Shown one piece after another: positions 583 to 24,976 of a DNA stretch of 25,114 bases. The notes under the pieces were generated by a model. That model was not told where the DNA came from and searched no databases. It worked only from the letters and a program-made list of their open reading frames with translations. The translations under genes were made by a program, and so were the position numbers. Numbering within the stretch: the stretch's first letter is position 1; the number at the start of each line of letters is the position of its first letter. The stretch comes from a virus. Its lineage: Duplodnaviria; Heunggongvirae; Uroviricota; Caudoviricetes. The DNA is taken from IMG/VR virus record IMGVR_UViG_2698536443_000023, positions 1-25,114 of that record. The stretch is one strand, 5' to 3'.

Positions 583-1596
583 TTACTCTACTGTGGACAC
601 TATGTGGACACTCTCGGCCTCAGTACCACCTCTTAGCGGATTAAGAGAAATGGCGTCCTGAAGGTACTCTGGCGCAAAATGAGCGTAAACCATAGTTTGC
701 TCAATCCGCGTGTGACCTAGTATCCGTTGTAGCGTGATAATACTTCCTCCATTAATCATGAAATGAGTGGCAAAGCTGTGCCTTAGTGCATGTGTGGCTT
801 GCCCCATTGGCAAATCCGGTTTTATTGCTTTCATTGTTCGTCTGAAGCGAGGGTAATCAGCATCAGGGAATAAAAAACCTCGTTTGTTATCCGCGATCAT
901 TTTGGCAACAGCCTCTGAGATCGGGACGGTGCGTGGTTTGTTTGTTTTCGTTTTAACAAACGTGACGCGGTTATGGATGATATTTTCTGCTTTCAAACGA
1001 GCTGCTTCTCCCCAACGTGCTCCAGTACTCAGGCAAAGAATCGCAATCTTTTTGTTGTCGCCGTCAAGAGCAGCAAGCAGTAAGGCAATTTCTTCCTGCG
1101 TGAGATAGCCTGTGTCTGGTTTTTCCTCCTTAAGCCTTTTTGTCCCTCTGATAGGGTGCTCACCAAAGAATAACTCCGCTTCAATCAGGGCTGTAAACAT
1201 GCCGCTAATACATGTTAAATCACGATTGATACTCGAAGGTTTAATACCCTGACTTCTTCGGGTGGCGCAGTACTGGCTGATAAGCGATTTCGTAATTTGA
1301 AATGCGCATGGGTCATTCGTTATTTTTGTGAAGATTTCAATTTTTCCAAGATTAGATTTCCCATGCTCTTCGTGTTTACCCTTTAAATCCCACCAGATCT
1401 GTGTCAGCTCCGACAGACGTCGCTTGTCTGTTGGTTTTGATAGCCATTCTTTATTGTGGTGGTTGTACAACGTGTATTTCTCGAAAGCGACAGCTTCGCT
1501 TTTCTTATCAAACTTCCTACGGATGCGTTTTCCATTACGTCCAGTAGGGCGGATGTCCACTTCATATCGACCATCATCGAGTTTTTTGATTGCCAT
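583..1596 (-). CDS. int: Tyrosine recombinase, P2-type integrase
   Basis: 337-aa ORF matching P2 Int in length. C-terminal catalytic region with HxLRHxxAT (ATHALRHSFATHF) and LGH...Y (ILGHTRIEQTMVYAHF) motifs. Adjacent to att core. Confidence 0.95.
   Translation of the reverse strand: MAIKKLDDGRYEVDIRPTGRNGKRIRRKFDKKSEAVAFEKYTLYNHHNKEWLSKPTDKRRLSELTQIWWDLKGKHEEHGKSNLGKIEIFTKITNDPCAFQITKSLISQYCATRRSQGIKPSSINRDLTCISGMFTALIEAELFFGEHPIRGTKRLKEEKPDTGYLTQEEIALLLAALDGDNKKIAILCLSTGARWGEAARLKAENIIHNRVTFVKTKTNKPRTVPISEAVAKMIADNKRGFLFPDADYPRFRRTMKAIKPDLPMGQATHALRHSFATHFMINGGSIITLQRILGHTRIEQTMVYAHFAPEYLQDAISLNPLRGGTEAESVHIVSTVE
592..612. repeat. Direct repeat TGTGGACAC x2 (592-600 and 604-612), candidate Int arm-type binding sites
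   Basis: Two identical 9-mers 12 bp apart, overlapping the 3' end of int near the att core. P2 Int arm sites are reported as TGTGGACA-like direct repeats. Confidence 0.5.
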
Positions 1597-3893: not shown

Positions 3894-4165
3894 GTATTCG
3901 TATTGAAATTGGCGAACGTTATGTCGTTACCAGTGACAGCTTTCAGTTTATTCTCCACGAGAAAAAGAGAGCGGAAAGCGGTAAAAACGCCGGTCAGGAA
4001 TGGCTGGCGGTGGTTGGTTATTACCCGAAATTAAGCCAGCTCGTTTCCGGCCTGATGCATCACGATATTCTGACCGGAAGCGCAAAGTCTTTTGCTGATT
4101 TAAACGCGCAGGTTGAGCAACTCAGCAAGCGTTGTTCAGAGGCTTTTGGCTCATATGGCCGTTAA
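3890..4165 (+). CDS. Hypothetical early protein (P2 orf83-like)
   Basis: 91-aa ORF with ATGA overlap to the upstream gene; conserved position before A. Confidence 0.55.
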   Translation: MSIRIEIGERYVVTSDSFQFILHEKKRAESGKNAGQEWLAVVGYYPKLSQLVSGLMHHDILTGSAKSFADLNAQVEQLSKRCSEAFGSYGR

Positions 4166-6410
4166 AGCCTCCGGGCGTTTTGTCCCTCCGTCAGCATTTG
4201 CCGCAGGCACCGGTAAGACGTTTACCGGTGCTTATGCATGGAACGCGCCACGCGAGGCTGTCGGGCGCGAAAGACCCCTTACACGTGACGAGATGCGTCA
4301 GGTGCAAGGTGTTTTATCCACGATTAATCGCCTGCCTTACTTTTTGCGCTCGCTGTTTACTTCACGCTATGACTACATCCGGCGCAATAAAAGCCCGGTG
4401 CACGGGTTTTATTTCCTCACATCTACTTTTCAGCGTCGTTTATGGCCGCGCATTGAGCGTGTGAATCAGCGCCATGAAATGAACACCGACGCGTCGTTGC
4501 TGTTTCTGGCAGAGCGTGACCACTATGCGCGCCTGCCGGGAATGAATGACAAGGAGCTGAAAAAGTTTGCCGCCCGTATCTCATCGCAGCTTTTCATGAT
4601 GTATGAGGAACTCAGCGATGCCTGGGTGGATGCGCATGGCGAAAAAGAATCGCTGTTTACGGATGAGGCGCAGGCGCATCTGTATGGTCATGTTGCTGGC
4701 GCTGCACGTGCTTTCAATATTTCCCCGCTTTACTGGAAAAAATACCGTAAAGGACAGATGACCACGAGGCAGGCATATTCTGCCATTGCCCGTCTGTTTA
4801 ACGATGAGTGGTGGACTCATCAGCTTAAAGGTCAGCGTATGCGCTGGCATGAGGCGTTACTGATTGCTGTCGGGGAGGTCAATAAAGACCGTTCTCCTTA
4901 TGCCAGTAAACATGCCATTCGTGATGTGCGTGCGCGCCGCCAGGCAAATCTGGAATTTCTTAAATCGTGTGACCTCGAAAACAGGGAAACCGGCGAGCGC
5001 ATCGACCTTATCAGTAAGGTGATGGGCAGTATTTCTAATCCTGAAATTCGCCGGATGGAGCTGATGAACACCATTGCCGGTATTGAGCGTTACGCCGCCG
5101 CAGAGGGTGATGTGGGGATGTTTATCACGCTGACCGCGCCGTCAAAGTATCACCCGACACGTCAGGTCGGAAAAGGCGAAAGTAAAACCGTTCAGCTTAA
5201 TCACGGCTGGAACGATGAGGCATTTAATCCAAAGGATGCGCAGCGTTATCTCTGCCGTATCTGGAGCCTGATGCGCACGGCATTCAAGGATAATGATTTA
5301 CAGGTCTACGGTTTGCGAGTCGTCGAGCCACACCACGACGGAACGCCGCACTGGCATATGATGCTTTTTTGTCATCCACGCCAGCGTAACCAGATTATCG
5401 AAATCATGCGTCGCTATGCGCTCAAAGAGGATGGCGACGAAAGAGGAGCCGCGCGAAACCGTTTTCAGGCAAAACACCTTAACCGGGGCGGTGCTGCGGG
5501 ATATATCGCGAAATACATCTCAAAAAACATCGACGGCTATGCACTGGATGGTCAGCTCGATAATGATACCGGTAGGCCGCTGAAAGACACAGCTGCGGCT
5601 GTTACCGCATGGGCGTCAACGTGGCGCATTCCGCAATTTAAAACGGTTGGTCTGCCGACAATGGGGGCTTACCGTGAACTACGCAAATTGCCTCGTGGCG
5701 TCAGCATTGCTGATGAGTTTGACGAGCGCGTCGAGGCTGCACGCGCCGCTGCAGACAGTGGTGATTTTGCGTTGTATATCAGCGCGCAGGGCGGGGCAAA
5801 TGTCCCGCGCGATTGTCAGACTGTCAGGGTCGCCCGTAGCCCGTCGGATGACGTTAACGAGTACGAGGAAGAAGTCGAGAGAGTGGTCGGCATTTACGCG
5901 CCGCATCTCGGCGCGCGTCATATTCATATCACCAGAACGACGAACTGGCGCATTGTTCCGAAAGTGCCGGTCGTTGAGCCTTTGACTTTAAAAAGCGGCT
6001 TCGCCGCGCCTCGGAGTCCTGTCAATAACTGTGGAAAGCTCACCGGTGGTGATACTTCGTTACCGGCTCCCACACCTTCTGAGCACGCCGCAGCTGTGCT
6101 TAATCTGGTTGATGACGGTGTTATCGAATGGAGTGACCCGGAGGTTGTGAGGGTGCTCAGGGGCGCATTAAAACACGACCTGAGAACACCAAACCGTCAG
6201 CAAAGAAACGGAAGCCCGTTAAAACCACATGAAATAGCGCCATCAGCCAGGCTGACCCGGTCGGAACGATTTCAAATTACCCGTATCCGCGTTGACCTTG
6301 CTCAGAACGGTATCAGGCCGCAGCGATGGGAGCTTGAGGCACTGACGCGTGGGGCAACCGTAAATTATGACGGGAAAAAATTCAAATATCCGGTGATTGA
6401 TGAGTGGTAA
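4155..6410 (+). CDS. A: Replication initiation protein A (rolling-circle nicking endonuclease)
   Basis: Large ORF; product from MAVKASGRFVPP matches the P2 A N-terminus as recalled. Contains HUH-like motif (PHWHMMLF) and catalytic tyrosine region (YIAKYISK). Alternative in-frame start at 4113. Confidence 0.9.
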   Translation: MAVKASGRFVPPSAFAAGTGKTFTGAYAWNAPREAVGRERPLTRDEMRQVQGVLSTINRLPYFLRSLFTSRYDYIRRNKSPVHGFYFLTSTFQRRLWPRIERVNQRHEMNTDASLLFLAERDHYARLPGMNDKELKKFAARISSQLFMMYEELSDAWVDAHGEKESLFTDEAQAHLYGHVAGAARAFNISPLYWKKYRKGQMTTRQAYSAIARLFNDEWWTHQLKGQRMRWHEALLIAVGEVNKDRSPYASKHAIRDVRARRQANLEFLKSCDLENRETGERIDLISKVMGSISNPEIRRMELMNTIAGIERYAAAEGDVGMFITLTAPSKYHPTRQVGKGESKTVQLNHGWNDEAFNPKDAQRYLCRIWSLMRTAFKDNDLQVYGLRVVEPHHDGTPHWHMMLFCHPRQRNQIIEIMRRYALKEDGDERGAARNRFQAKHLNRGGAAGYIAKYISKNIDGYALDGQLDNDTGRPLKDTAAAVTAWASTWRIPQFKTVGLPTMGAYRELRKLPRGVSIADEFDERVEAARAAADSGDFALYISAQGGANVPRDCQTVRVARSPSDDVNEYEEEVERVVGIYAPHLGARHIHITRTTNWRIVPKVPVVEPLTLKSGFAAPRSPVNNCGKLTGGDTSLPAPTPSEHAAAVLNLVDDGVIEWSDPEVVRVLRGALKHDLRTPNRQQRNGSPLKPHEIAPSARLTRSERFQITRIRVDLAQNGIRPQRWELEALTRGATVNYDGKKFKYPVIDEW

Positions 6411-6539
6411 GGCTATTAGATTATGAATAAATACAGGTCTGATTGATGGATTGGAAAATAGCAAATTTAAAAAACAATAATTGTAATGTTTTAAGTAATG
6501 GTTAAATATTGCTTAATGTCATTGTTTTCTTAAATTTTA

Positions 6540-6570
6540 AAGTGCCTCCCATTATTAGGGGGCACTTTGA
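6540..6570. terminator. Candidate bidirectional stem-loop terminator between A and the convergent cargo operon
   Basis: Inverted repeat GTGCCTCCC / GGGGGCAC with 7-nt loop, flanked by T/A-rich tracts on both strands, within an AT-rich spacer. Confidence 0.4.
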
Positions 6571-6584
6571 TTGATGGGGGTGAT

Positions 6585-7868
6585 TTATTGTGGCCAGTCC
6601 CAGTTATCATATTGTCGAATTTTTTCTGATAACACTTGAGGCGCGCTACCGTGAGTTACATTTTCAGCATAACCAATCGTGCCGACATAGTTAATATCAT
6701 CAATATCAAGTGTATTGGCGTCCCATGGCCGTATCTTGCGAGTTGGTTCACAGATAGAAACGTCACGATTGATGGTTTTTAACCACGAGATATTTATTAC
6801 TTTTGCGCCTGCAGCTTTTAGATACATCCTGGCTGTTTCATGAGCATTTCCTTCAGTGCAAAAATCATCAATAACTAATATTTTCTTACCTTTCAAGTTC
6901 GGCGGGTTGGTATATCTTTTGCCGGTGTTGATATTTTTAATAGGGGCAGGGTTTAAATGAACGGTATTTATTTGAGATGTGATGTTTACTTCTTGTTTAG
7001 CTATTCGGGCTTGCTGTGACTTAATGGCTGTTGTATGTCGTAAGAATAGATCTTTTAAATACTTTCCTTTGAATGAGACCGCCAAACCTTTTAGGTCATG
7101 CTCCATAATATCTGCTAGTTTATAAGGGTTTTCAGCGTTATGTCCAACGTAGGTGGTTATAAAACTTGCTCCCTCACTTAAGCCAGAGAAATAAATGCTG
7201 GCACCAAGATATCTTATCCAAAAATCGGGGCTTCCAACCGATAGCTTGGCGAGGTCTCTTGCATTGGCTGAATACATTGTAAATTCAGTGACATATGTGC
7301 TAAATGGTGCCAAGGCGTAGTAGTGAACATCTTCATTAAAATGCCCTTGCCATCCCCACAACTGTTCTCTTAAGCAAAAAACATCAATAAATCTAGCGAT
7401 CTCTTTGGGTTCTGAAAATTGAAAACCGTACTCAGTAACCGGTTCATACCAGGTTGCATTAATAAATAGGGTGTTACCGTTGGTAGCTGCTTGTAAGTCT
7501 TCCCGAGAACGCCCAACATAGATCATTTCGTTTCGTTTCAACTCTAATGCAGCCATGATGAAATCTATGGCCTTCCCTGTTTGTTTTGCTGGTATGTTGT
7601 TGTCGAGTTCATGGCAAAAGTGAATTGATTCTGGGAATTTCCTTTTTAGGTATTCGTCTAGTGTTACGACCCCGTCATGTGTTTCCACGTTTCTATTTTT
7701 ATTTGTCAAGAAGATAACTTTAATCCCTTTTGATGACAAAAACGCAAACAACTTACGCAATTCCGAGTCGATTCTAGATTTTAGTTCCTGAGGTTGAGTG
7801 TTAGATGTTAATGGTAATACAACATCTGCGATTGAAAATATAACTGCCTTTAAATACATACTATTCAT
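6585..7868 (-). CDS. Phosphoribosyltransferase (PRTase)-like protein, cargo in the tin/old hotspot
   Basis: 427-aa ORF. Type I PRTase PRPP-binding-like motif KKILVIDDFCTEGNAHE at residues about 328-345 (nt about 6849-6884). Start overlaps upstream gene stop (alternative ATG at 7859). AT-rich relative to the phage backbone. Confidence 0.75.
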   Translation of the reverse strand: MNSMYLKAVIFSIADVVLPLTSNTQPQELKSRIDSELRKLFAFLSSKGIKVIFLTNKNRNVETHDGVVTLDEYLKRKFPESIHFCHELDNNIPAKQTGKAIDFIMAALELKRNEMIYVGRSREDLQAATNGNTLFINATWYEPVTEYGFQFSEPKEIARFIDVFCLREQLWGWQGHFNEDVHYYALAPFSTYVTEFTMYSANARDLAKLSVGSPDFWIRYLGASIYFSGLSEGASFITTYVGHNAENPYKLADIMEHDLKGLAVSFKGKYLKDLFLRHTTAIKSQQARIAKQEVNITSQINTVHLNPAPIKNINTGKRYTNPPNLKGKKILVIDDFCTEGNAHETARMYLKAAGAKVINISWLKTINRDVSICEPTRKIRPWDANTLDIDDINYVGTIGYAENVTHGSAPQVLSEKIRQYDNWDWPQ

Positions 7869-8910
7869 CTCCCAGAAGAGAAAGTTGCTGTGTTTTTACA
7901 CCGGATGCTGATTTAATTAAGTTTTGAACGTCTTTAAAATCGGATAGTGGAATGTTCATTATCGTAGCTGAGTACTCCGACAAGGCATGTTTAATTTCTT
8001 CTTGAGGTGTGGTTCCCCTAAGTAAAGGACAAAGTATCGCTCTTTTTAATTGAGCTGCATATCTCACAGTATGAGATGTCCCACTTTTTAGGCCCCATTC
8101 AACTGGGATTAATACATCACTTAAAGCTGCTTGAATTCTATTTCTACGAACAAAGTTTTCCTGTGATGGCTTTTGGTTTGGTAAATACTCAGTAAGAATC
8201 AGTCCGCCATTATTAACAATATGGCCTCTCATCTCGCCACTATTTTTGGGGTAATTTGAGTTTACACCTGTACCTAGCACAGCAATTGTCGGTATTTTAA
8301 ATAATAGGGATGCTTCATGTGCAGATTGATCTATACCATATGCTAAACCGCTTACAGTTGAATAATCTGAATCTATAAATTGTGAGATTACTGCTTGAGT
8401 TAAATAAATTCCAAGCGCGGTTGGGTTTCTAGTGCCGACAACTCCAACACACTTTTTATCTAGCAAAGATACATCGCCTTGAGCAAACAACCAGAAAGGC
8501 GGTTCAGACAGGTCATTCAACTTGTCTGGATAGTTTGGAGAACCATGGTGGATAATTTTGTAACCACTATTATGATAATGTGTGAGTAAGATTTTAGCCG
8601 TAGAAATCATGCGGTCCCGAAAAACAGACCAATTGCTTTCATTCAAATAATAAGGTTGGCGATGAAGTTTTACTCCGAGTAGATACTCAAAGTTGGCTAA
8701 TGTTTGGCTGGTAACAATGTCTCTAAATCTGATTCCCTTTTGAGCAACTTTATATAGAGTCCAATAACTCACGCCATGTATTTCTGATAGTGCCAACAAA
8801 GCGGCACTTTCTGTGTTCCATCGAGCTGTTTCAATATCCGTCATAATGTTCGCCAAAATGGAAGATTTTTTATCGCTTTTATCATAGGTTTGTATAAAAG
8901 TGTAGCACAT
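7861..8910 (-). CDS. DprA/Smf-like (SLOG superfamily Rossmann-fold) protein, cargo in the tin/old hotspot
   Basis: 349-aa ORF. Central region VGVVGTRNPTALG...VSGLAYGIDQSAHEASL...IAVLGTGVNSNYPKNS...RRNRIQAALSDVLIPVEWGLKSGTSHT matches the conserved DprA Rossmann core (VGsR, SGlAxGID, AVLGxG..YP, RNRI, SGSL/T). Overlaps the downstream PRTase gene by 8 nt. Confidence 0.8.
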   Translation of the reverse strand: MCYTFIQTYDKSDKKSSILANIMTDIETARWNTESAALLALSEIHGVSYWTLYKVAQKGIRFRDIVTSQTLANFEYLLGVKLHRQPYYLNESNWSVFRDRMISTAKILLTHYHNSGYKIIHHGSPNYPDKLNDLSEPPFWLFAQGDVSLLDKKCVGVVGTRNPTALGIYLTQAVISQFIDSDYSTVSGLAYGIDQSAHEASLLFKIPTIAVLGTGVNSNYPKNSGEMRGHIVNNGGLILTEYLPNQKPSQENFVRRNRIQAALSDVLIPVEWGLKSGTSHTVRYAAQLKRAILCPLLRGTTPQEEIKHALSEYSATIMNIPLSDFKDVQNLIKSASGVKTQQLSLLGDE

Positions 8911-9049
8911 TAAACTAAGACTTTAGAGGGCATGTTCTTGCATCAAAATGCATGTAAAAAAACAAAAAATTAATGAACCTTAGGTCTTATCCAGTCAATC
9001 TCTAGTGTTCACATGCATCTGCATTAAAACCGACTCATGAAGCGGGCGG

Positions 9050-9068
9050 GCGAGGCGGGGAAAGCACT
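9050..9068. other. cos site (19-nt cohesive-end sequence of P2-type phages)
   Basis: GGCGAGGCGGGGAAAGCAC matches the P2 cohesive end as I recall it, in the expected position between the hotspot and Q. Confidence 0.75.
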
Positions 9069-9208
9069 GCGCGCTGGCGGTGGTGCTGATTTTATTTTTT
9101 CAGCGTCTGAGCGCGTCGTGAAGGCGTTTACTTGGCCTGCTGGGCGTTGGTGTGTCTGCGGGGTGTTTTGTGCGGTGGTGAGCGTGTGAGGGCGTGATGA
9201 CGGGGTGT

Positions 9209-9230
9209 AAAAAAGCCGCCCGCAGGCGGC
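9209..9230 (-). terminator. Rho-independent terminator downstream of Q
   Basis: On the minus strand: GCCGCC-TGCG-GGCGGC hairpin followed by TTTTTT, immediately after the Q stop codon. Confidence 0.6.
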
Positions 9231-9235
9231 GATGT

Positions 9236-10270
9236 TCAGCCGTTGTCAGTGTCCAGTGAGTAGTTTTTAAAGCGGATGACCTCCTGACCGAGCCAGCCGT
9301 TTATCTCGCGGATCCTGTCCTGTAGCGGGATAAGCTCATTGCGGACAAAGACCTTTGCCACTTTCTCAATATCACCCAGCGACCCGACGTTCTCCGGCTT
9401 GCCGCCCATCAACTGAAAGGGGATGCGGTGCGCGTCCAGCAGGTCAGCGGCGCTGGCTTTTTTGATATTAAAAAAATCGTCCTTCGTTGCCACTTCACTG
9501 AGCGGGATAATTTTGATGCCGTCGGCTTTCCCCTGTGGGGCATAGAGAAACAGATTTTTAAAGTTGTTGCGGCCTTTCGACTTCACCATGTTTTCGCGGA
9601 GCATTTCGATATCGTTGCGATCCTGTACGGCATCAGTGACGTACATGATGTATCCGGCATGAGCGCCGTTTTCGTAATACTTGCGGCGGAACAGTGTGGC
9701 TGATTCATTCAGCCAGGCAGAATTAAGGGCGCTGAGATATTCCGGCAGGCCGTACAGCTCCTGATTGATATCCGGCTCCAGCAGGTGAAACACGGAGCCG
9801 GGCGTGAAGGCTGTCGGCTCGTTGAAGGACGGCACCCACCAGTAAACATCCTCCTCCACGCCACGGCGGGTATATTTTGCCGGTGAGGTTTCCAGTCTGA
9901 TGACCTTACCGGTGGTGCTGTAACGCTTTTCCAGAAACGCATTACCGAACACCAGAAAATCCAGCACAAAGCGGCTGAAATCCTGTTGCGAAAGCCACGG
10001 ATGCGGGATAAATGTCGAGGCCAGAATATTGCGTTTAACGTAAATCGGTGAGCTGTGATGCACGGCAGCACGCAGACTTTTTGCCAGACCGGTAAAGCTG
10101 ACCGGTGGCTCATACCATCTGCCGTTACTGATGCACTCGACGTAATCCAGAATGTCACGGCGGTCGAGTACCGGCACCGGCTCACCAAAGGTGAATGCCT
10201 CCATTTTCGGGGCGCTGGCGGTCATTTTTTTTGCCGCAGGTTGCGGTGTTTTCCCTTTTTTCTTGCTCAT
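9236..10270 (-). CDS. Q: Portal (capsid) protein Q
   Basis: 344-aa ORF matching P2 Q in size and in position, leftward from the divergent late promoter region and next to cos. Confidence 0.95.
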   Translation of the reverse strand: MSKKKGKTPQPAAKKMTASAPKMEAFTFGEPVPVLDRRDILDYVECISNGRWYEPPVSFTGLAKSLRAAVHHSSPIYVKRNILASTFIPHPWLSQQDFSRFVLDFLVFGNAFLEKRYSTTGKVIRLETSPAKYTRRGVEEDVYWWVPSFNEPTAFTPGSVFHLLEPDINQELYGLPEYLSALNSAWLNESATLFRRKYYENGAHAGYIMYVTDAVQDRNDIEMLRENMVKSKGRNNFKNLFLYAPQGKADGIKIIPLSEVATKDDFFNIKKASAADLLDAHRIPFQLMGGKPENVGSLGDIEKVAKVFVRNELIPLQDRIREINGWLGQEVIRFKNYSLDTDNG

Positions 10271-20908: not shown

Positions 20909-23158
20909 ATGAGCACAAAATTCAGAACCGTTATCACCACTGCCGGTGCAGCAAAGCTGGCAGCGGCAACCGCACCGGGAGGGCGGAAGGTCAACATTAC
21001 CACGATGGCCGTCGGGGATGGCGGTGGTAAATTGCCTGTCCCGGATGCCGGACAGACCGGGCTTATCCACGAAGTCTGGCGACATGCGCTGAACAAAATC
21101 AGCCAGGACAAACGAAACAGTAATTATATTATCGCAGAGCTGGTTATTCCGCCGGAGGTGGGCGGTTTCTGGATGCGTGAACTTGGCCTGTACGATGATG
21201 CGGGAACGCTAATTGCCGTGGCGAACATGGCCGAAAGTTATAAGCCAGCCCTTGCCGAAGGCTCAGGGCGTTCGCAGACCTGCCGCATGGTCATCATCGT
21301 CAGCAGTGTGGCCTCAGTGGAGCTGACCATTGACACCACAACGGTGATGGCGACGCAGGATTACGTTGATGACAAAATTGCAGAGCACGAACAGTCACGA
21401 CGTCACCCGGACGCTTCTCTGACCGCAAAAGGTTTTACTCAGTTAAGCAGCGCGACCAACAGCACGTCTGAAACACTGGCCGCAACGCCGAAAGCAGTAA
21501 AGACCGCCTATGACCTTGCTAACGGGAAATATACTGCGCAGGATGCCACCACAGCGCGAAAAGGTCTTGTCCAACTCAGTAGTGCCACCAACAGCACGTC
21601 TGAAACGCTCGCCGCAACACCAAAAGCGGTTAAGGCAGCATATGACCTTGCTAATGGCAAATACACCGCGCAGGACGCCACCACCGCGCGAAAAGGCCTT
21701 GTTCAGCTCAGTAGTGCCACCAACAGCGATTCTGAAACGCTTGCGGCAACGCCAAAGGCGGTTAAGGCCGCGTATGACCTTGCTAACGGGAAATACACTG
21801 CACAGGATGCCACCACGGCGCGGAAAGGCCTTGTCCAGCTCAGTAGCGCCACCAACAGTGATTCTGAAACGCAGGCCGCAACACCAAAAGCGGTGAAGTC
21901 TGCCTATGACAATGCTGAAAAACGTCTTCAGAAAGATCAGAACGGTGCGGATATTCCTGATAAAGGACGCTTCCTGAGTAACATTAATGTTTACAGCAAA
22001 GGTGAAGTGGATAAGAAAAAGGGAATGCGAAAGTATTCGTTTGCAGCCCCTGCAAATGTCGTTGCCGGGAAGTGGTATCCCGTTATCTTTCGCCGTGCTG
22101 CCAGCCTTTCAGGAGAAATGGCATCCCGCGTCGTTATTTCCACTGGTTGTTATAACAGCGATTATGTAATGAATAACTGCGAGTTTAATGGCATGGTTAT
22201 GCCCGGAGGCTGGACTGATCGTGGTTCATATGCGGCAGGTTATTTCTGGACGTATCAGACTAATGAGCGTTCAATCCATTCCATTGTTACAAGCCTGAAA
22301 GATGATGATGTATGTAGTGTTTTTTATGTTGAAGCCAGAGCTTTCCCTGTGCAAATTCTTGCAGAGGAAGGGCTAACGGTTATTGTTCCGACAGAGGATT
22401 ATGTCGTCGGTCAAACGACATATAAGTGGGGGGCAACTAATCCTGCTACAGAAAGCACGAACGCACAGGCTATTCTGGATTTTAAAAATGGGCGCGGTTA
22501 TTACTGCTCACATCCATTTATTTCCAGCCTTTCGGGAAATGCTGCAACAGCAACGAAGTTAGCGAACGCAAGAAATATTAATGGTGTCAGATTTGATGGC
22601 TCTGCTGATATAAATATTAATACACTGGTATCCAGAAACCGTGTTACTGCATTAGGTGGGAGCGTAAAGGGGACACCAGGTATTCAGATGTATGAGGCAT
22701 ACAACAATGGCTACCCAACAGCCTATGGTAATGTGCTTCATCTCACTGGCGTAACCGCAGTAGGAGAGGGTGAGTTACTTATTGGCTGGAGTGGAACCAG
22801 CGGTGCTCATGCTCCGGCATATATTCGCTCCCGACGAGATACCACAGATGCTAACTGGTCTGGATGGGCGCAACTATATACAACTGCTCATAAACCCTCA
22901 GCGGGAGATGTTGGTGCATACACCAAAGCTGAATCAGATTCACGTTATGTGAGAGACATGCGGCTGGGCGGTGCATCTACATATAAACCAGCAAATAATG
23001 GTACTACATGGACGCATCAGGCTCCGTCAGGTTGCGTATATACCGGCATTATTGTTCAGGATACCGGCTCAAACTCTGCCGATAACATTGGTGGCGTATA
23101 TTACAGACCGGTGCAGAAATACATTAACGGGACATGGTATAACGTGGCGCAGGTATAA
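20909..23158 (+). CDS. H: Tail fibre protein H, with expanded internal tail-fibre repeats and divergent distal domain
   Basis: 749-aa ORF in the P2 H position. Contains the tail-fibre repeat motif (QLSSATNS.SETLAATPKAVK). The distal half is AT-rich and looks mosaic. Confidence 0.9.
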   Translation: MSTKFRTVITTAGAAKLAAATAPGGRKVNITTMAVGDGGGKLPVPDAGQTGLIHEVWRHALNKISQDKRNSNYIIAELVIPPEVGGFWMRELGLYDDAGTLIAVANMAESYKPALAEGSGRSQTCRMVIIVSSVASVELTIDTTTVMATQDYVDDKIAEHEQSRRHPDASLTAKGFTQLSSATNSTSETLAATPKAVKTAYDLANGKYTAQDATTARKGLVQLSSATNSTSETLAATPKAVKAAYDLANGKYTAQDATTARKGLVQLSSATNSDSETLAATPKAVKAAYDLANGKYTAQDATTARKGLVQLSSATNSDSETQAATPKAVKSAYDNAEKRLQKDQNGADIPDKGRFLSNINVYSKGEVDKKKGMRKYSFAAPANVVAGKWYPVIFRRAASLSGEMASRVVISTGCYNSDYVMNNCEFNGMVMPGGWTDRGSYAAGYFWTYQTNERSIHSIVTSLKDDDVCSVFYVEARAFPVQILAEEGLTVIVPTEDYVVGQTTYKWGATNPATESTNAQAILDFKNGRGYYCSHPFISSLSGNAATATKLANARNINGVRFDGSADININTLVSRNRVTALGGSVKGTPGIQMYEAYNNGYPTAYGNVLHLTGVTAVGEGELLIGWSGTSGAHAPAYIRSRRDTTDANWSGWAQLYTTAHKPSAGDVGAYTKAESDSRYVRDMRLGGASTYKPANNGTTWTHQAPSGCVYTGIIVQDTGSNSADNIGGVYYRPVQKYINGTWYNVAQV
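21428..21907 (+). repeat. In-frame tandem repeats, 132-bp unit (44 aa), about 3.6 copies, inside H
   Basis: Copies start at 21428, 21560, 21692 and 21824. Unit KGLVQLSSATNS(T/D)SETLAATPKAVKAAYDLANGKYTAQDATTAR is near-identical between copies; the last copy diverges after PKAVKSAYD. Confidence 0.85.
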
Positions 23159-23161
23159 TTT

Positions 23162-23689
23162 ATGCAGCATTTGATAAATATAACGGCGGGTAATCCAAAA
23201 ACGGTTGAACAATATCAATTGACAAAGAATTTTGATGTTGTCTGGTTTTTTTCAGAAGATGGTAAGAACTGGTACGAAGAACAAAAGTATTTTGCTGATG
23301 ACACGATAAAAATAGCGTACGACAAAGATAATATCATCCACTATGTGGAAAAGGATGTGACAGCTATCAGACCGGATGGATTAAGTGTTGTTGAAGTGGC
23401 GGATATTACTGCTAACCGACGGGCGGACATTTCAGGGAACTGGATGTTTAAGGACGGCAAAGTGATTAAACGCATTTATACGGCAGAGGAATTACAGCAG
23501 CAGGCAGAAATTCGGAAAGCCAGACTTCTTGCAGATGCTGAATCCGTGATTTTGCCGCTGGAGCGCGCGGTCAGACTGAACATGGCAACAGATGAGGAGC
23601 GTAGCCGACTGGAATCATGGGAACGCTACAGCGTTCTGGTCAGTCGTGTGGATCCTGCAAATCCTGAATGGCCGGAAATGCCACAATAA
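23162..23689 (+). CDS. G: Tail fibre assembly chaperone G
   Basis: 175-aa ORF directly downstream of H, matching P2 G in size and position (tail fibre assembly protein family). Confidence 0.9.
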
Positions 23690-23879: not shown

Positions 23880-24650
23880 TTACTCTTTAGCTCGTTTGGT
23901 CATCTCATTTGCTAACTGTGTAGACCAATAATGTTGACTCTTTGCTTCTAATATGAAAAGTAGCGCTCTCACACATTGTAGCTGAGCATGCACATAAGTA
24001 TGAATATTACCAACCGAAGTAGGAACTAAGTGGGTTTCAGGTGTGTAGTAGTGGTAGATGCTCGTTTGTGAAGGATGAACATATTCGCTAAGTATGTCAT
24101 AAGTCAGTTCAAAATCACTTTCCATCTGATTAGTCTGCTTCATCTCATCTTTATAGAGTTCGCGTAAAGCAGTCATCACATGCATACTGACAGCAAGTAG
24201 GTTTTCAAAACGATATTTAGCCTCCTCAGTAAACATGTAGTCGTTCGGGTCAAATACTTCTTTCTGAATCTTTTCTTGCTCTGACTTTTTAAATCGAGAA
24301 CTATTCGTAAAGTTCAATATAACTTCGATAGCGTTATCTACACTTGCGTGTCCATTTTGGGTAGTCAAAATTTTCTCTACTTTCTTGTTTAAGAGTCGTG
24401 AGAAGGCATGAGTTTCAATCATTCCTCGGCTAACAATACAAGCGCTTTGGTATCGTTCGTTTTCGAGGAGGAGAAGCGCATCATCGAAGATGTCTATCTG
24501 CCTGTTCATAAGTAAATTGGCATAATTAACGAGATACAGTCCGCGGTCAGGGTTATATGTTTTTTCGACAATTACACCATTAATCTTGCTCAGCGCAGCT
24601 CTGGCGGCTTTTGCCTCATTCAGTCTCTGTTCTATAAGTTCTTTATACAT
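23880..24650 (-). CDS. Hypothetical protein of unknown function, cargo at the P2 Z/fun hotspot
   Basis: 256-aa ORF on the opposite strand to the flanking late genes. AAGGAAA Shine-Dalgarno before the ATG at 24650. Markedly AT-rich. No domain recognised. Occupies the variable locus between G and FI. Confidence 0.7.
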   Translation of the reverse strand: MYKELIEQRLNEAKAARAALSKINGVIVEKTYNPDRGLYLVNYANLLMNRQIDIFDDALLLLENERYQSACIVSRGMIETHAFSRLLNKKVEKILTTQNGHASVDNAIEVILNFTNSSRFKKSEQEKIQKEVFDPNDYMFTEEAKYRFENLLAVSMHVMTALRELYKDEMKQTNQMESDFELTYDILSEYVHPSQTSIYHYYTPETHLVPTSVGNIHTYVHAQLQCVRALLFILEAKSQHYWSTQLANEMTKRAKE

Positions 24651-24976
24651 GCTTTGTTTCCTTACAGGAGGATGTGTATCAACGAATAATCATTCCGCCT
24701 TTTGTCAGCTTGACTGTAAGGTATCATGCTGAAGTTAGCCATACAAAGCTCTGCCCATTATCAGTTTACCCAAAGCAGACTGTCAGATTTGATAGCGTTT
24801 GGGCTATGTAAATTGTCAGTCGGAAAATGAGTGAGTACAAATCAGGACAGGCGGGCAAATTGCCCGCCTTTTCTTTACCGGTGGTTGTGCTGTCGATTAG
24901 CCAACCGGGACAAATAGCCTGACATCTCCGGCACAACTGAAAATACCACTCACCCATTAACCACGGAGTTAAACGG

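Follow-up and report, generated by a model that had tools for sequence, protein, structure and literature searches.

The open reading frame at 6585..7868 on the minus strand of the window (the whole stretch of DNA analysed, 25,114 nucleotides from the Caudoviricetes record IMGVR_UViG_2698536443_000023) is shosT; it encodes the toxin of ShosTA (Shosta), a two-gene toxin-antitoxin system that acts against phages. The overall reading, held with high confidence, is that of a toxic PRTase joined to a degenerate HAD-fold accessory module and carried as cargo of a P2 hotspot. The PADLOC ShosT profile PDLC03012 matches the product with an E-value of 1.3e-293 and covers residues 1-427 of 427, and the protein is 96% identical over its full length to the ShosT chains of PDB entries 8zvb, 8zvc and 8zvd and of 9w2p and 9w2q. 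Regarded purely as annotation this is unremarkable: the window carries a known defence toxin of solved structure, in a prophage hotspot that is also known. The two-domain architecture of ShosT and its similarity to the HAD-family pyrophosphatase BT2127 are already published, and the modest addition made here is the loss of catalytic residues across the HAD-PRTase family.

The closest characterized system is that of E. coli APEC O1, to which the ShosT structures (8ZVB, 8ZVC, 8ZVD; 9W2P, 9W2Q) belong. The shosA partner, the gene order and the orientation are all alike, as is the location in a P2-type prophage hotspot described by Rousset et al. 2022. The two toxins differ by about 16 substitutions, none of them at a residue named in the structural papers; R56, N53, K54, K92, H240, K280, R285, D331 and D332 are all present in the window protein with the numbering raised by 3. 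Neutralisation of the toxin by ShosA and protection against phage are documented in the literature for the APEC O1 system and for a P2-hotspot DprA and PRTase system, which protects against T7 and lambda (PMC9122126). The gene-level features of the window are as follows.

6585..7868, minus strand: shosT coding sequence, the longest open reading frame, 427 residues from the first ATG, stop codon at 6585-6587
7861..8844, minus strand: shosA, DprA-like antitoxin gene, 327 residues when translation starts at ATG 8844; its longest open reading frame reaches 8910
6411..9235, no strand assigned: low-GC cargo cassette in the P2 hotspot, between gene A and gene Q
4113..6410, plus strand: replication gene A of P2, cassette flank
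9236..10270, minus strand: portal gene Q of P2, cassette flank

The preliminary description had placed a 427-residue reading frame here, and both the frame and the motif strings quoted from it are real: FSIAD begins at residue 11 of the window protein, FLTNKN at 53, YVGRS at 117 and VIDDF at 332, the last containing D334 and D335. Translation probably begins at the second ATG, 7859 (MYLK...), which gives a protein of 424 residues, because the Shine-Dalgarno sequence GGGAG touches the first ATG and lies 9 nt from the second, because ShosT homologues start M[HLF]LKAVIFS, and because both ShosT papers number 424 residues (PMC11961720; NAR 2026). Literature numbering therefore equals window numbering minus 3; window numbering is used below unless paper numbering is indicated.

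The product of shosA matches the PADLOC ShosA profile PDLC02997 (E 2.5e-232, residues 23-349) and the Pfam family DNA_processg_A (E 1.5e-59), and the gene is the 984-nt DprA gene of the RefSeq annotation. RefSeq still labels the window shosT 'hypothetical protein'. The shosA stop codon, TAG at 7863-7861, leaves a gap of 1 nt to the shosT ATG at 7859 and would overlap by 8 nt if the first shosT ATG were used. A co-oriented DprA-family gene also lies directly upstream of the shosT-like gene in six distant homologues, and shosT is probably coupled in translation to shosA. The cassette that holds both genes is flanked by P2 genes A, Q and P, with a cos site near 9031-9057, and its GC content of 0.38-0.39 (windows 7001-9000) compares with 0.52-0.58 in the neighbouring phage genes (4001-6000 and 9001-12000). 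Of 5426 complete E. coli genomes, 30 carry the full cassette; it is also in Peduovirus P24C9 and phage 10W, both of which are linear records that terminate inside the cassette. The shosTA pair is low-GC cargo in a cos-proximal defence hotspot of a P2-like prophage. Scanning the cassette for promoters and terminators yielded no promoters above shuffled expectation.

The C-terminal part of the protein is the toxic module and contains the following features.

6588..7367, minus strand: enlarged non-canonical type I PRTase domain, window residues 168-427
6843..6881, minus strand: PRPP-binding loop, ILVIDDFCTEGNA, in which D334/D335 are paper D331/D332

A PRPP-binding-like motif had been placed near residue 330, and this is borne out: the loop motif hhhhDD..T.G is matched by ILVIDDFCTEGN at residues 330-341, and all 114 homologues keep D334, D335, T338 and G340. 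H243, K283 and R288, which contact PRPP, are kept in 113, 107 and 114 of the same homologues; they correspond to H240, K280 and R285 in paper numbering, which are among the PRPP ligands in the ShosT crystal complex. Published work shows that ShosT binds PRPP, in a crystal complex among other evidence, that it does not bind the purines tested, and that four common purines gave no PRTase activity. Toxicity is abolished in the D331A/D332A mutant according to PMC11961720, and in the R285E mutant according to published ShosT work. The PRTase domain (about 168-427) is monomeric and uses the D334/D335 loop, along with H243, K283 and R288, to bind PRPP; the HAD-like domain would not be the killing activity.

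Where the PRTase begins is a point on which the preliminary description needs correction. It had given the protein an N-terminal extension of about 300 residues, with HAD-like features at residues 45-135 and a short PRTase behind it. Because the Pfam PF00156 match is confined to residues 301-360 (E 9.9e-6; 25.4 bits against a cut-off of 26.3), the PRTase does look short by sequence alone; the family matches 57 of 60 homologues, and PDB PRTases match the window protein at an E-value of 1e-3. In the crystal structures paper residues 165-424 make up a single PRTase domain, which has extended PPi and flexible loops (PMC11961720; NAR 2026), and the three conserved PRPP ligands at 243, 283 and 288 fall inside 168-300. 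A non-PRTase extension of 300 residues is therefore refuted; the extra domain has about 164 residues, and 168-300 belong to the PRTase, a fold assignment that rests on the published structures, since a full-length single-sequence AlphaFold2 model reached a pLDDT of only 37.5. The scenario under which the N-terminal region would simply be the canonical PRTase hood is relevant to residues 168-300 alone. Residues 1-300 as a PRTase hood or some other fold were rejected, the HAD fold occupying 4-167 and the PRTase starting from about 168.

Residues 4-167 of ShosT are a capless Rossmannoid core of the HAD superfamily.

7368..7859, minus strand: N-terminal capless HAD-fold domain, window residues 4-167, paper residues 1-164

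Taken alone, the window protein gives only sub-threshold Pfam and NCBIfam matches to HAD and PRTase families (E 7.6e-4 and 7.4e-3 for the Pfam HAD families), and profiles built from homologues were needed to decide. Of 60 homologues, 48 are matched by the Pfam HAD families, in some cases above the gathering cut-off; the N-terminal domain, searched as a profile, matches HAD structures, with 2hi0 at an E-value of 2.2e-7 and motifs II-IV aligned; and an AlphaFold2 model of residues 1-170, computed from a 60-sequence alignment, has a pLDDT of 94.4. The resemblance, first noticed by eye, is thus far beyond chance. Motif I lies outside the Pfam matches and the significant PDB profile matches and is covered by one weak, non-significant alignment to 2om6. 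The crystal structures place the domain boundary at 164/165 in paper numbering (PMC11961720; NAR 2026). Identity to distant homologues is 36% in the HAD-like domain against 40% in the PRTase domain, D124, W140 and G148 are invariant in the former, and residues 128-165, its final strand plus the helix that connects to the PRTase domain, are strongly conserved. Conservation near the level of the PRTase, with three invariant residues, favours a selected function over simple decay. Short matches of 100-240 residues to the N-terminal domain profile were considered as stand-alone domains and set aside as most probably fragments from short contigs.

Four conserved motifs of the HAD superfamily can be located in the domain.

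7815..7847, minus strand: degenerate HAD motif I, AVIFSIADVVL, with Ser12 at the position of the Asp nucleophile, Ala14 at Asp+2 and Asp15 as the family-conserved +3 residue
7701..7718, minus strand: HAD motif II strand, VIFLTN (T55, N56), aligned to 'vvSNK' of 2hi0
7584..7586, minus strand: HAD motif III lysine K95 (paper K92), aligned to the RKP motif of 2hi0
7497..7526, minus strand: HAD motif IV, MIYVGRSRED, with the first Asp replaced by R120 and D124 kept, aligned to YIGDSEIDIQTA of 2hi0

The motif II-like strand and the motif IV-like hhhhGDxxxD segment singled out in the preliminary description are what they had been taken for, with T55 in motif II and G119 to D124 in motif IV, and its remark that motif I lacks the DxD also stands. 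Ser12 is assigned to the nucleophile column because distant ShosT-like homologues have FDLDGTL in these columns. An alternative register, in which Asp15 would be Asp+2 and residue 13 the nucleophile, was prompted by a small clade of cyanobacterial proteins with the sequence VIFGDRDVI; it was rejected because the FDLDGTL homologues align their first Asp with Ser12. Both registers leave the window protein without a nucleophile Asp. Among 114 close and medium homologues, position 12 is Ser in 95, Gly in 17 and Asp in none, while position 15 is Asp in 91. Position 55 is Thr in 67, Ser in 14, Ala in 23 and Gly in 9, N56 is present in 112, and position 95 is Lys in 107 and Arg in 7. Motif IV reads G119-R120-S-R-E-D124.

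Calling the domain degenerate is apt for the family as well as for the window protein, since the first motif IV Asp is lost too, and that Asp and the nucleophile Asp are both absent in 157 of 180 HAD-PRTase proteins. In these 157, position 120 is Ala, Ser, Asn or Arg and never Asp, while D124 is present in all 180. The nucleophile Asp is kept in the other 23, of which 7 have the full DxD and 20 have GDxxxD; three of the 23 are encoded directly downstream of DprA genes, and in a tree built from the PRTase domain alone one split separates all 23 from the rest. Representatives with canonical motifs (P0237, P0261, P0233, P0228 and P0232) have the same fusion in 380-400 residues and a PRPP loop of the form hhDDFxT, and, like shosT, their genes lie immediately downstream of a DprA-family gene. 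This clade keeps the nucleophile Asp, mostly GDxxxD and in some members the complete FDLDGTL, all of which ShosT lacks, and its identity to the window protein is only about 24-26%. The existence of a distinct ShosTA-linked clade with FDLDGTL and GDxxxD argues that the window domain is a degenerate descendant of a canonical HAD. Judged from the alignments, the loss of the HAD catalytic residues is derived and common to most of the family. The crystallised ShosT is itself among the proteins without the canonical HAD machinery, which the sister ShosTA clade keeps.

HAD enzymes work through a phospho-aspartyl intermediate; the nucleophile Asp and the first Asp of motif IV hold Mg2+, and Asp+2 serves as general acid/base. 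With the Asp nucleophile, Asp+2 and the first motif IV Asp lost, the HAD-like domain of ShosT should not be capable of phospho-aspartyl chemistry, and its sequence excludes the canonical HAD mechanism. The domain keeps its phosphate-binding elements, T55-N56 of motif II, K95 of motif III and D124 of motif IV. We infer that its role in vivo is that of an accessory phosphate- or pyrophosphate-binding module which modestly assists the PRTase, and its activity would be at most the weak Mg2+-independent PPi hydrolysis seen in vitro.

The published model goes further and takes the N-terminal domain to be a bona fide inorganic pyrophosphatase, whose removal of PPi pulls the PRTase reaction forward and raises toxicity. 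According to Pu et al. 2025 (PMC11961720), purified ShosT hydrolyses PPi weakly and independently of Mg2+, in an assay read after 30 min with enzyme at 1 uM and PPi at 100 uM, and orthophosphate occupies the HAD site, at motifs II and III, after co-crystallisation with PPi, where it is contacted by R56, by backbone atoms of N53 and K54 and, through water, by K92 (window R59, N56/K57 and K95). The same paper reports structural similarity to BT2127 and a marginal reduction of toxicity in R56A, the sole mutant tested in the HAD-like domain, and the NAR 2026 paper also adopts the model. The consumption of PPi and the orthophosphate in the site mean that the domain may be a genuine, mechanistically unusual pyrophosphatase. 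Against this, the Asp nucleophile, Asp+2 and first motif IV Asp are missing from the window protein as from 157 of the 180 proteins in the family, and independence of Mg2+ is atypical of HAD chemistry. R56 is not conserved, its position (window R59) being Trp in 72 and Arg in 16 of 114 homologues. Inorganic pyrophosphatase is already abundant in E. coli, which also counts against the model. The PPi assay was an end-point measurement, and neither an active-site mutant control nor kinetic constants are described for it in the accessible text of PMC11961720. On balance a true pyrophosphatase is less likely than not.

At the other extreme, the domain could be a pure pseudoenzyme, a regulatory or sensor module that binds a phosphorylated metabolite, an acceptor or a product, or that holds the PRTase in a particular state, and hydrolyses nothing. 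Across the family the catalytic residues were lost in concert while the phosphate-binding N56, K95 and D124 were retained, which is consistent with such a module, as are the strong conservation of residues 128-165 and the label 'unknown function' first given to the domain in the NAR paper. The reported PPi consumption and bound orthophosphate (PMC11961720) speak against it, as do the facts that phosphate is the only ligand seen and that its binding brings no conformational change (NAR 2026). We regard this explanation as rather unlikely. In a more specific form, to which we give equally tentative weight, the E. coli-type domain would be a non-pyrophosphatase sensor or allosteric module with a pocket formed by N56, K95, D124 and the clade-specific R59 and R120, while the FDLDGTL/GDxxxD clade would keep an ancestral phosphatase step. 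Were this more specific reading true, the 'PRTase-PPase coupling' model in the literature would have to be revised, and the two clades would offer a natural experiment for finding the substrate and product of ShosT. Neither a deletion of the N-terminal domain nor mutants of its conserved residues are reported in the accessible text of the published ShosT papers; mutants of the conserved sites, together with the canonical-motif homologues, could tell a catalytic domain from a regulatory or a vestigial one, and may help to find the acceptor.

BT2127 of Bacteroides thetaiotaomicron, a HAD 'type III' inorganic pyrophosphatase (PDB 3QU2, 3QUQ), has 221 residues and a cap domain, whereas the ShosT core is capless and has 164. 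The catalytic Asp is present in BT2127, for which Asp13Asn and Asp13Ala mutant PDB entries exist, while the motif I of ShosT has Ser and Ala; and the PPi activity of ShosT is reported as Mg2+-independent (PMC11961720). Membership of a BT2127-like group, taken as BT2127 being the nearest HAD enzyme together with a cap and the catalytic Asp, was not found for the window domain. The phosphoglycolate-phosphatase-like HAD subfamily IA (PDB 2HI0, 2YY6, 3KZX) has a C1 cap and an intact DxD, and ShosT lacks both.

On the side of the toxic module, PsyrT/RqlI and the PRTase effectors of retrons are PRTase-domain toxins like ShosT, and PsyrT/RqlI is likewise paired with a DprA-related antitoxin. The PADLOC PsyrT profile gave no match to the window protein at E <= 0.1, and the ShosA protein also matches the PADLOC PsyrA profile with an E-value of 3e-24.

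The ORF at 6585..7868 is shosT, the toxin gene of the ShosTA (Shosta) toxin-antitoxin defence system, and its product agrees with ShosT in every respect that could be checked. The PADLOC ShosT profile matches it over 427/427 positions (E 1.3e-293), and the crystallised ShosT chains 8ZVB, 8ZVC, 8ZVD, 9W2P and 9W2Q, from E. coli APEC O1, are 96% identical to it over the full length. The ORF upstream matches the PADLOC ShosA profile (E 2.5e-232) and the Pfam family DNA_processg_A (DprA; E 1.5e-59). RefSeq labels shosT 'hypothetical protein'. The HAD and PRTase architecture of ShosT is already known, having been published in 2025-2026 (Pu et al. 2025, PMC11961720, and a NAR 2026 paper; the ShosTA papers) with a hint in 2022; a HAD label is present in a figure legend of Rousset et al. 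2022 (PMC9122126).

6585..7868, minus strand: shosT ORF, 427 aa counted from the first ATG

The gene probably starts at the second ATG, 7859 (MYLKAV...), rather than at 7868. A GGGAG Shine-Dalgarno sequence at 7873-7869 abuts the first ATG and lies 9 nt from the second, the N-termini of homologues read M[HLF]LKAVIFS, and ShosT has 424 residues in the numbering of both structural papers. With this start and a published protein of 424 residues, the literature numbering equals the window numbering minus 3. The shosA stop codon, TAG at 7863-7861, is separated by 1 nt from the ATG at 7859, a spacing that suggests translational coupling. The longest shosA ORF, which begins at 8910 and has 349 aa, reaches too far upstream; the match to the PADLOC profile starts at its residue 23, and shosA in RefSeq has 327 aa with its ATG at 8844.

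The preliminary description had guessed that the PRTase is joined to a HAD-like module in degenerate form, and this was right: the HAD fold is recovered by profiles and by structure prediction, while the motif I DxD and the first motif IV Asp are lost. The segments it had quoted are present (FSIADVVL, residues 11-18; VIFLTNKN, 51-58; MIYVGRSREDLQAA, 115-128), as is the PRPP-type loop near residue 330, ILVIDDFCTEGN at 330-341 with D334/D335. For the window protein alone, the Pfam matches to residues 33-136 are both sub-threshold (PF00702, E 7.6e-4; PF13419, E 7.4e-3). HAD_2 and Hydrolase are matched by 48 of 60 diverse homologues, some over the gathering cut-off (38.7 bits for homologue P0095 against 23.8). 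A profile from a 60-sequence alignment of the N-terminal domain matched the solved HAD enzymes 2hi0 (E 2.2e-7), 2om6, 2go7 and 3kzx, with residue-by-residue alignment of motif II (SNK), motif III (KP) and motif IV (YIGDSEID). On the same alignment AlphaFold2 gave a confident model of residues 1-170 (pLDDT 94.4, pTM 0.90), for which Foldseek against the PDB returned the ShosT structures at TM 0.92, the remaining matches listed all being HAD-superfamily structures. Since every Pfam match begins past the part of the profiles that covers the cap, and the model lacks one as well, the N-terminal domain is a capless HAD core, consistent with Pu et al. 2025 (PMC11961720).

The window protein is thus a HAD superfamily member by fold, motifs II and III and half of motif IV, and it fails at the defining motif I, where the absence of DxD had been correctly recognised. 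Among 114 homologues of 35-96% identity, the motif positions are occupied as follows.

Position 12, motif I nucleophile: Ser 95, Gly 17, never Asp; Ser in the window protein
Position 14, motif I Asp+2: variable (Glu, Arg, Ala and others)
Position 15, motif I +3: Asp 91/114
Position 55, motif II: T, S, A or G
Position 56, motif II: Asn 112/114
Position 95, motif III: Lys 107/114
Position 119, motif IV: Gly 113/114
Position 120, motif IV first Asp: A, S, N or R
Position 124, motif IV second Asp: Asp 114/114

In a small clade (P0081, P0091, P0095 and P0104; L002 4001-5209, Cyanobacterium aponinum) motif I reads VIFGDRDVI, with DxD one residue off the canonical register and Gly in the nucleophile column.

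What did not stand is the 300-residue length given to the N-terminal extension. In both crystal-structure papers, residues 165-424 form one PRTase domain, monomeric and enlarged, in which the PPi loop is extended and a further loop is long and flexible. Its PRPP ligands H240, K280, R285, D331 and D332 correspond to H243 (conserved in 113/114), K283 (107/114), R288, D334 and D335 (each 114/114) of the window protein. These domain limits and conserved ligands place residues 168-300 in the catalytic PRTase domain, within which Pfam picks up the PRPP loop alone (residues 301-360).

According to the ShosTA papers, ShosT (the 96% identical protein) is toxic and is neutralised by ShosA without binding, as in a type IV toxin-antitoxin system; its C-terminal domain binds PRPP, and toxicity is abolished by D331A/D332A and by R285E. 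Cells expressing it filament and acquire DNA duplications, and their purine metabolism is perturbed. ShosA binds ssDNA and RecA, and T7 Gp0.7 or phage ssDNA is the proposed trigger. According to PMC11961720, ShosT consumes PPi independently of Mg2+ (1 uM enzyme, 100 uM PPi, 30-min end point), orthophosphate is contacted in the N-terminal domain by R56, the N53/K54 backbone and K92, and R56A, the 'PPase mutant' of the literature, loses toxicity only marginally. The residue equivalent to R56, window residue 59 (7692..7694, minus strand), is Trp in 72/114 homologues and Arg in only 16/114, and varies (K, N, A) even above 50% identity.

Judged by the residues that ligate the metal in HAD enzymes, the N-terminal domain would not bind Mg2+ in the usual way. 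It retains the phosphate pocket of HAD enzymes, with aspartyl-phosphate chemistry impossible. The published ShosT data combined with the motif analysis point to an accessory phosphate/PPi-binding module, at most weakly hydrolytic, that may give modest help to the PRTase toxin. The domain is under selection and not decaying, as its conservation indicates: D124, W140 and G148 are invariant, and identity to distant homologues is 36% for the HAD domain versus 40% for the PRTase domain. BT2127, the HAD-superfamily inorganic pyrophosphatase of Bacteroides thetaiotaomicron, is no more like the ShosT HAD domain than phosphoglycolate phosphatases are, and ShosT, unlike BT2127, lacks the cap and the catalytic Asp residues; the window protein should not be classed as a BT2127-type pyrophosphatase.

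The N-terminal profile, searched against 1.84 billion representative proteins, matched chiefly HAD-PRTase proteins of 380-430 aa and, further out, ordinary capped HAD phosphatases. Among 180 aligned full-length HAD-PRTase proteins, the nucleophile Asp is absent in 157, none of which has the first motif IV Asp, and is kept in 23, with GDxxxD in 20/23 and full DxD in 7/23 (for example FDLDGTL in P0237, P0261 and P0232). These Asp-bearing homologues fix the register, with Ser12 in the nucleophile column. In a neighbour-joining tree of the PRTase domain only, a single split separates all 23, together with one other protein, from the rest. The alignment and the tree indicate that the large clade with the window protein underwent a coordinated loss of its canonical HAD catalytic residues, a loss not found described in either ShosTA paper. 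Three of the 23 canonical-type proteins are encoded directly downstream of DprA-family genes.

L007 2624-3784: ShosT-like protein P0237, downstream of DprA
L009 4001-5164: ShosT-like protein P0261, downstream of DprA
L010 1922-3115: ShosT-like protein P0233, downstream of DprA

The same position, directly downstream of DprA-family genes, is occupied by three distant homologues of the Ser/Gly type (from a cyanobacterium, Methylobacterium and Billgrantia). DprA partners in both groups indicate that the HAD-PRTase fusion and its partnership with DprA are old and conserved. Three points add modestly to what is published, namely the clade-wide catalytic loss, the canonical-motif ShosTA clade and the finding that R56 is not conserved; through them the published PPase-coupling model becomes testable. 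The surroundings of the distant loci resemble defence islands: ShosTA lies beside a PLD-SNF2 helicase fusion and an Abi_2 protein in Cyanobacterium (L002 1-2691 and 5972-6841), near GmrSD in Billgrantia (L006 6320-8422), and among integrase, resolvase and phage tail genes in Methylobacterium (L004). The ShosT-like gene of L009 adjoins a type I/IIG restriction-modification-like gene.

As a whole, the window is a prophage of P2-like (Peduovirus) type.

Before A: integrase, C-type repressor, cox and B
4113..6410, plus strand: replication endonuclease A, preceding the cassette
Between A and Q, strand opposite to A: shosA-shosT cassette
9236..10270, minus strand: portal Q, after the cassette
Beyond Q: terminase, scaffold, P2-type capsid, tail and fibre genes

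The GC content of the cassette is 38-39%, against 52-58% in neighbouring phage genes. Of 5426 complete E. coli genomes, 30 carry the entire cassette, as do Peduovirus P24C9 and phage 10W, whose linear records terminate inside the query, placing cos at about 9031-9057. This arrangement matches the one that Rousset et al. 2022 (PMC9122126) described, a cos-adjacent hotspot in P2-like phages that can hold a DprA and PRTase system giving protection against T7 and lambda. The Q stop is directly followed by a strong hairpin, rich in GC, that leads into a run of T (GCCGCCTGCGGGCGGC TTTTTT; 9215..9232, minus strand), plausibly an intrinsic terminator between Q and the cos region/shosTA cassette. In a 99.5% identical relative (L001, E. 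coli ESBLEC_HM50) the integration site adjoins pflA and ycaD; the window begins just within the pflA/ycaD-side junction, upstream of the integrase gene (583..1596).

A second variable site of P2-type phages, occupied by Z/fun in P2, lies past H and G.

20909..23158: tail fibre gene H
23162..23689: assembly gene G
23880..24650, minus strand: DUF5677 protein, 256 aa (Pfam E 1.3e-10)
24766..24957, minus strand: 63-aa ORF without a match

A PADLOC search with the DUF5677 protein gave zero matches. The GC content of this locus is low (about 41-44%), and its genes may be cargo for defence or superinfection exclusion of an uncharacterised kind.
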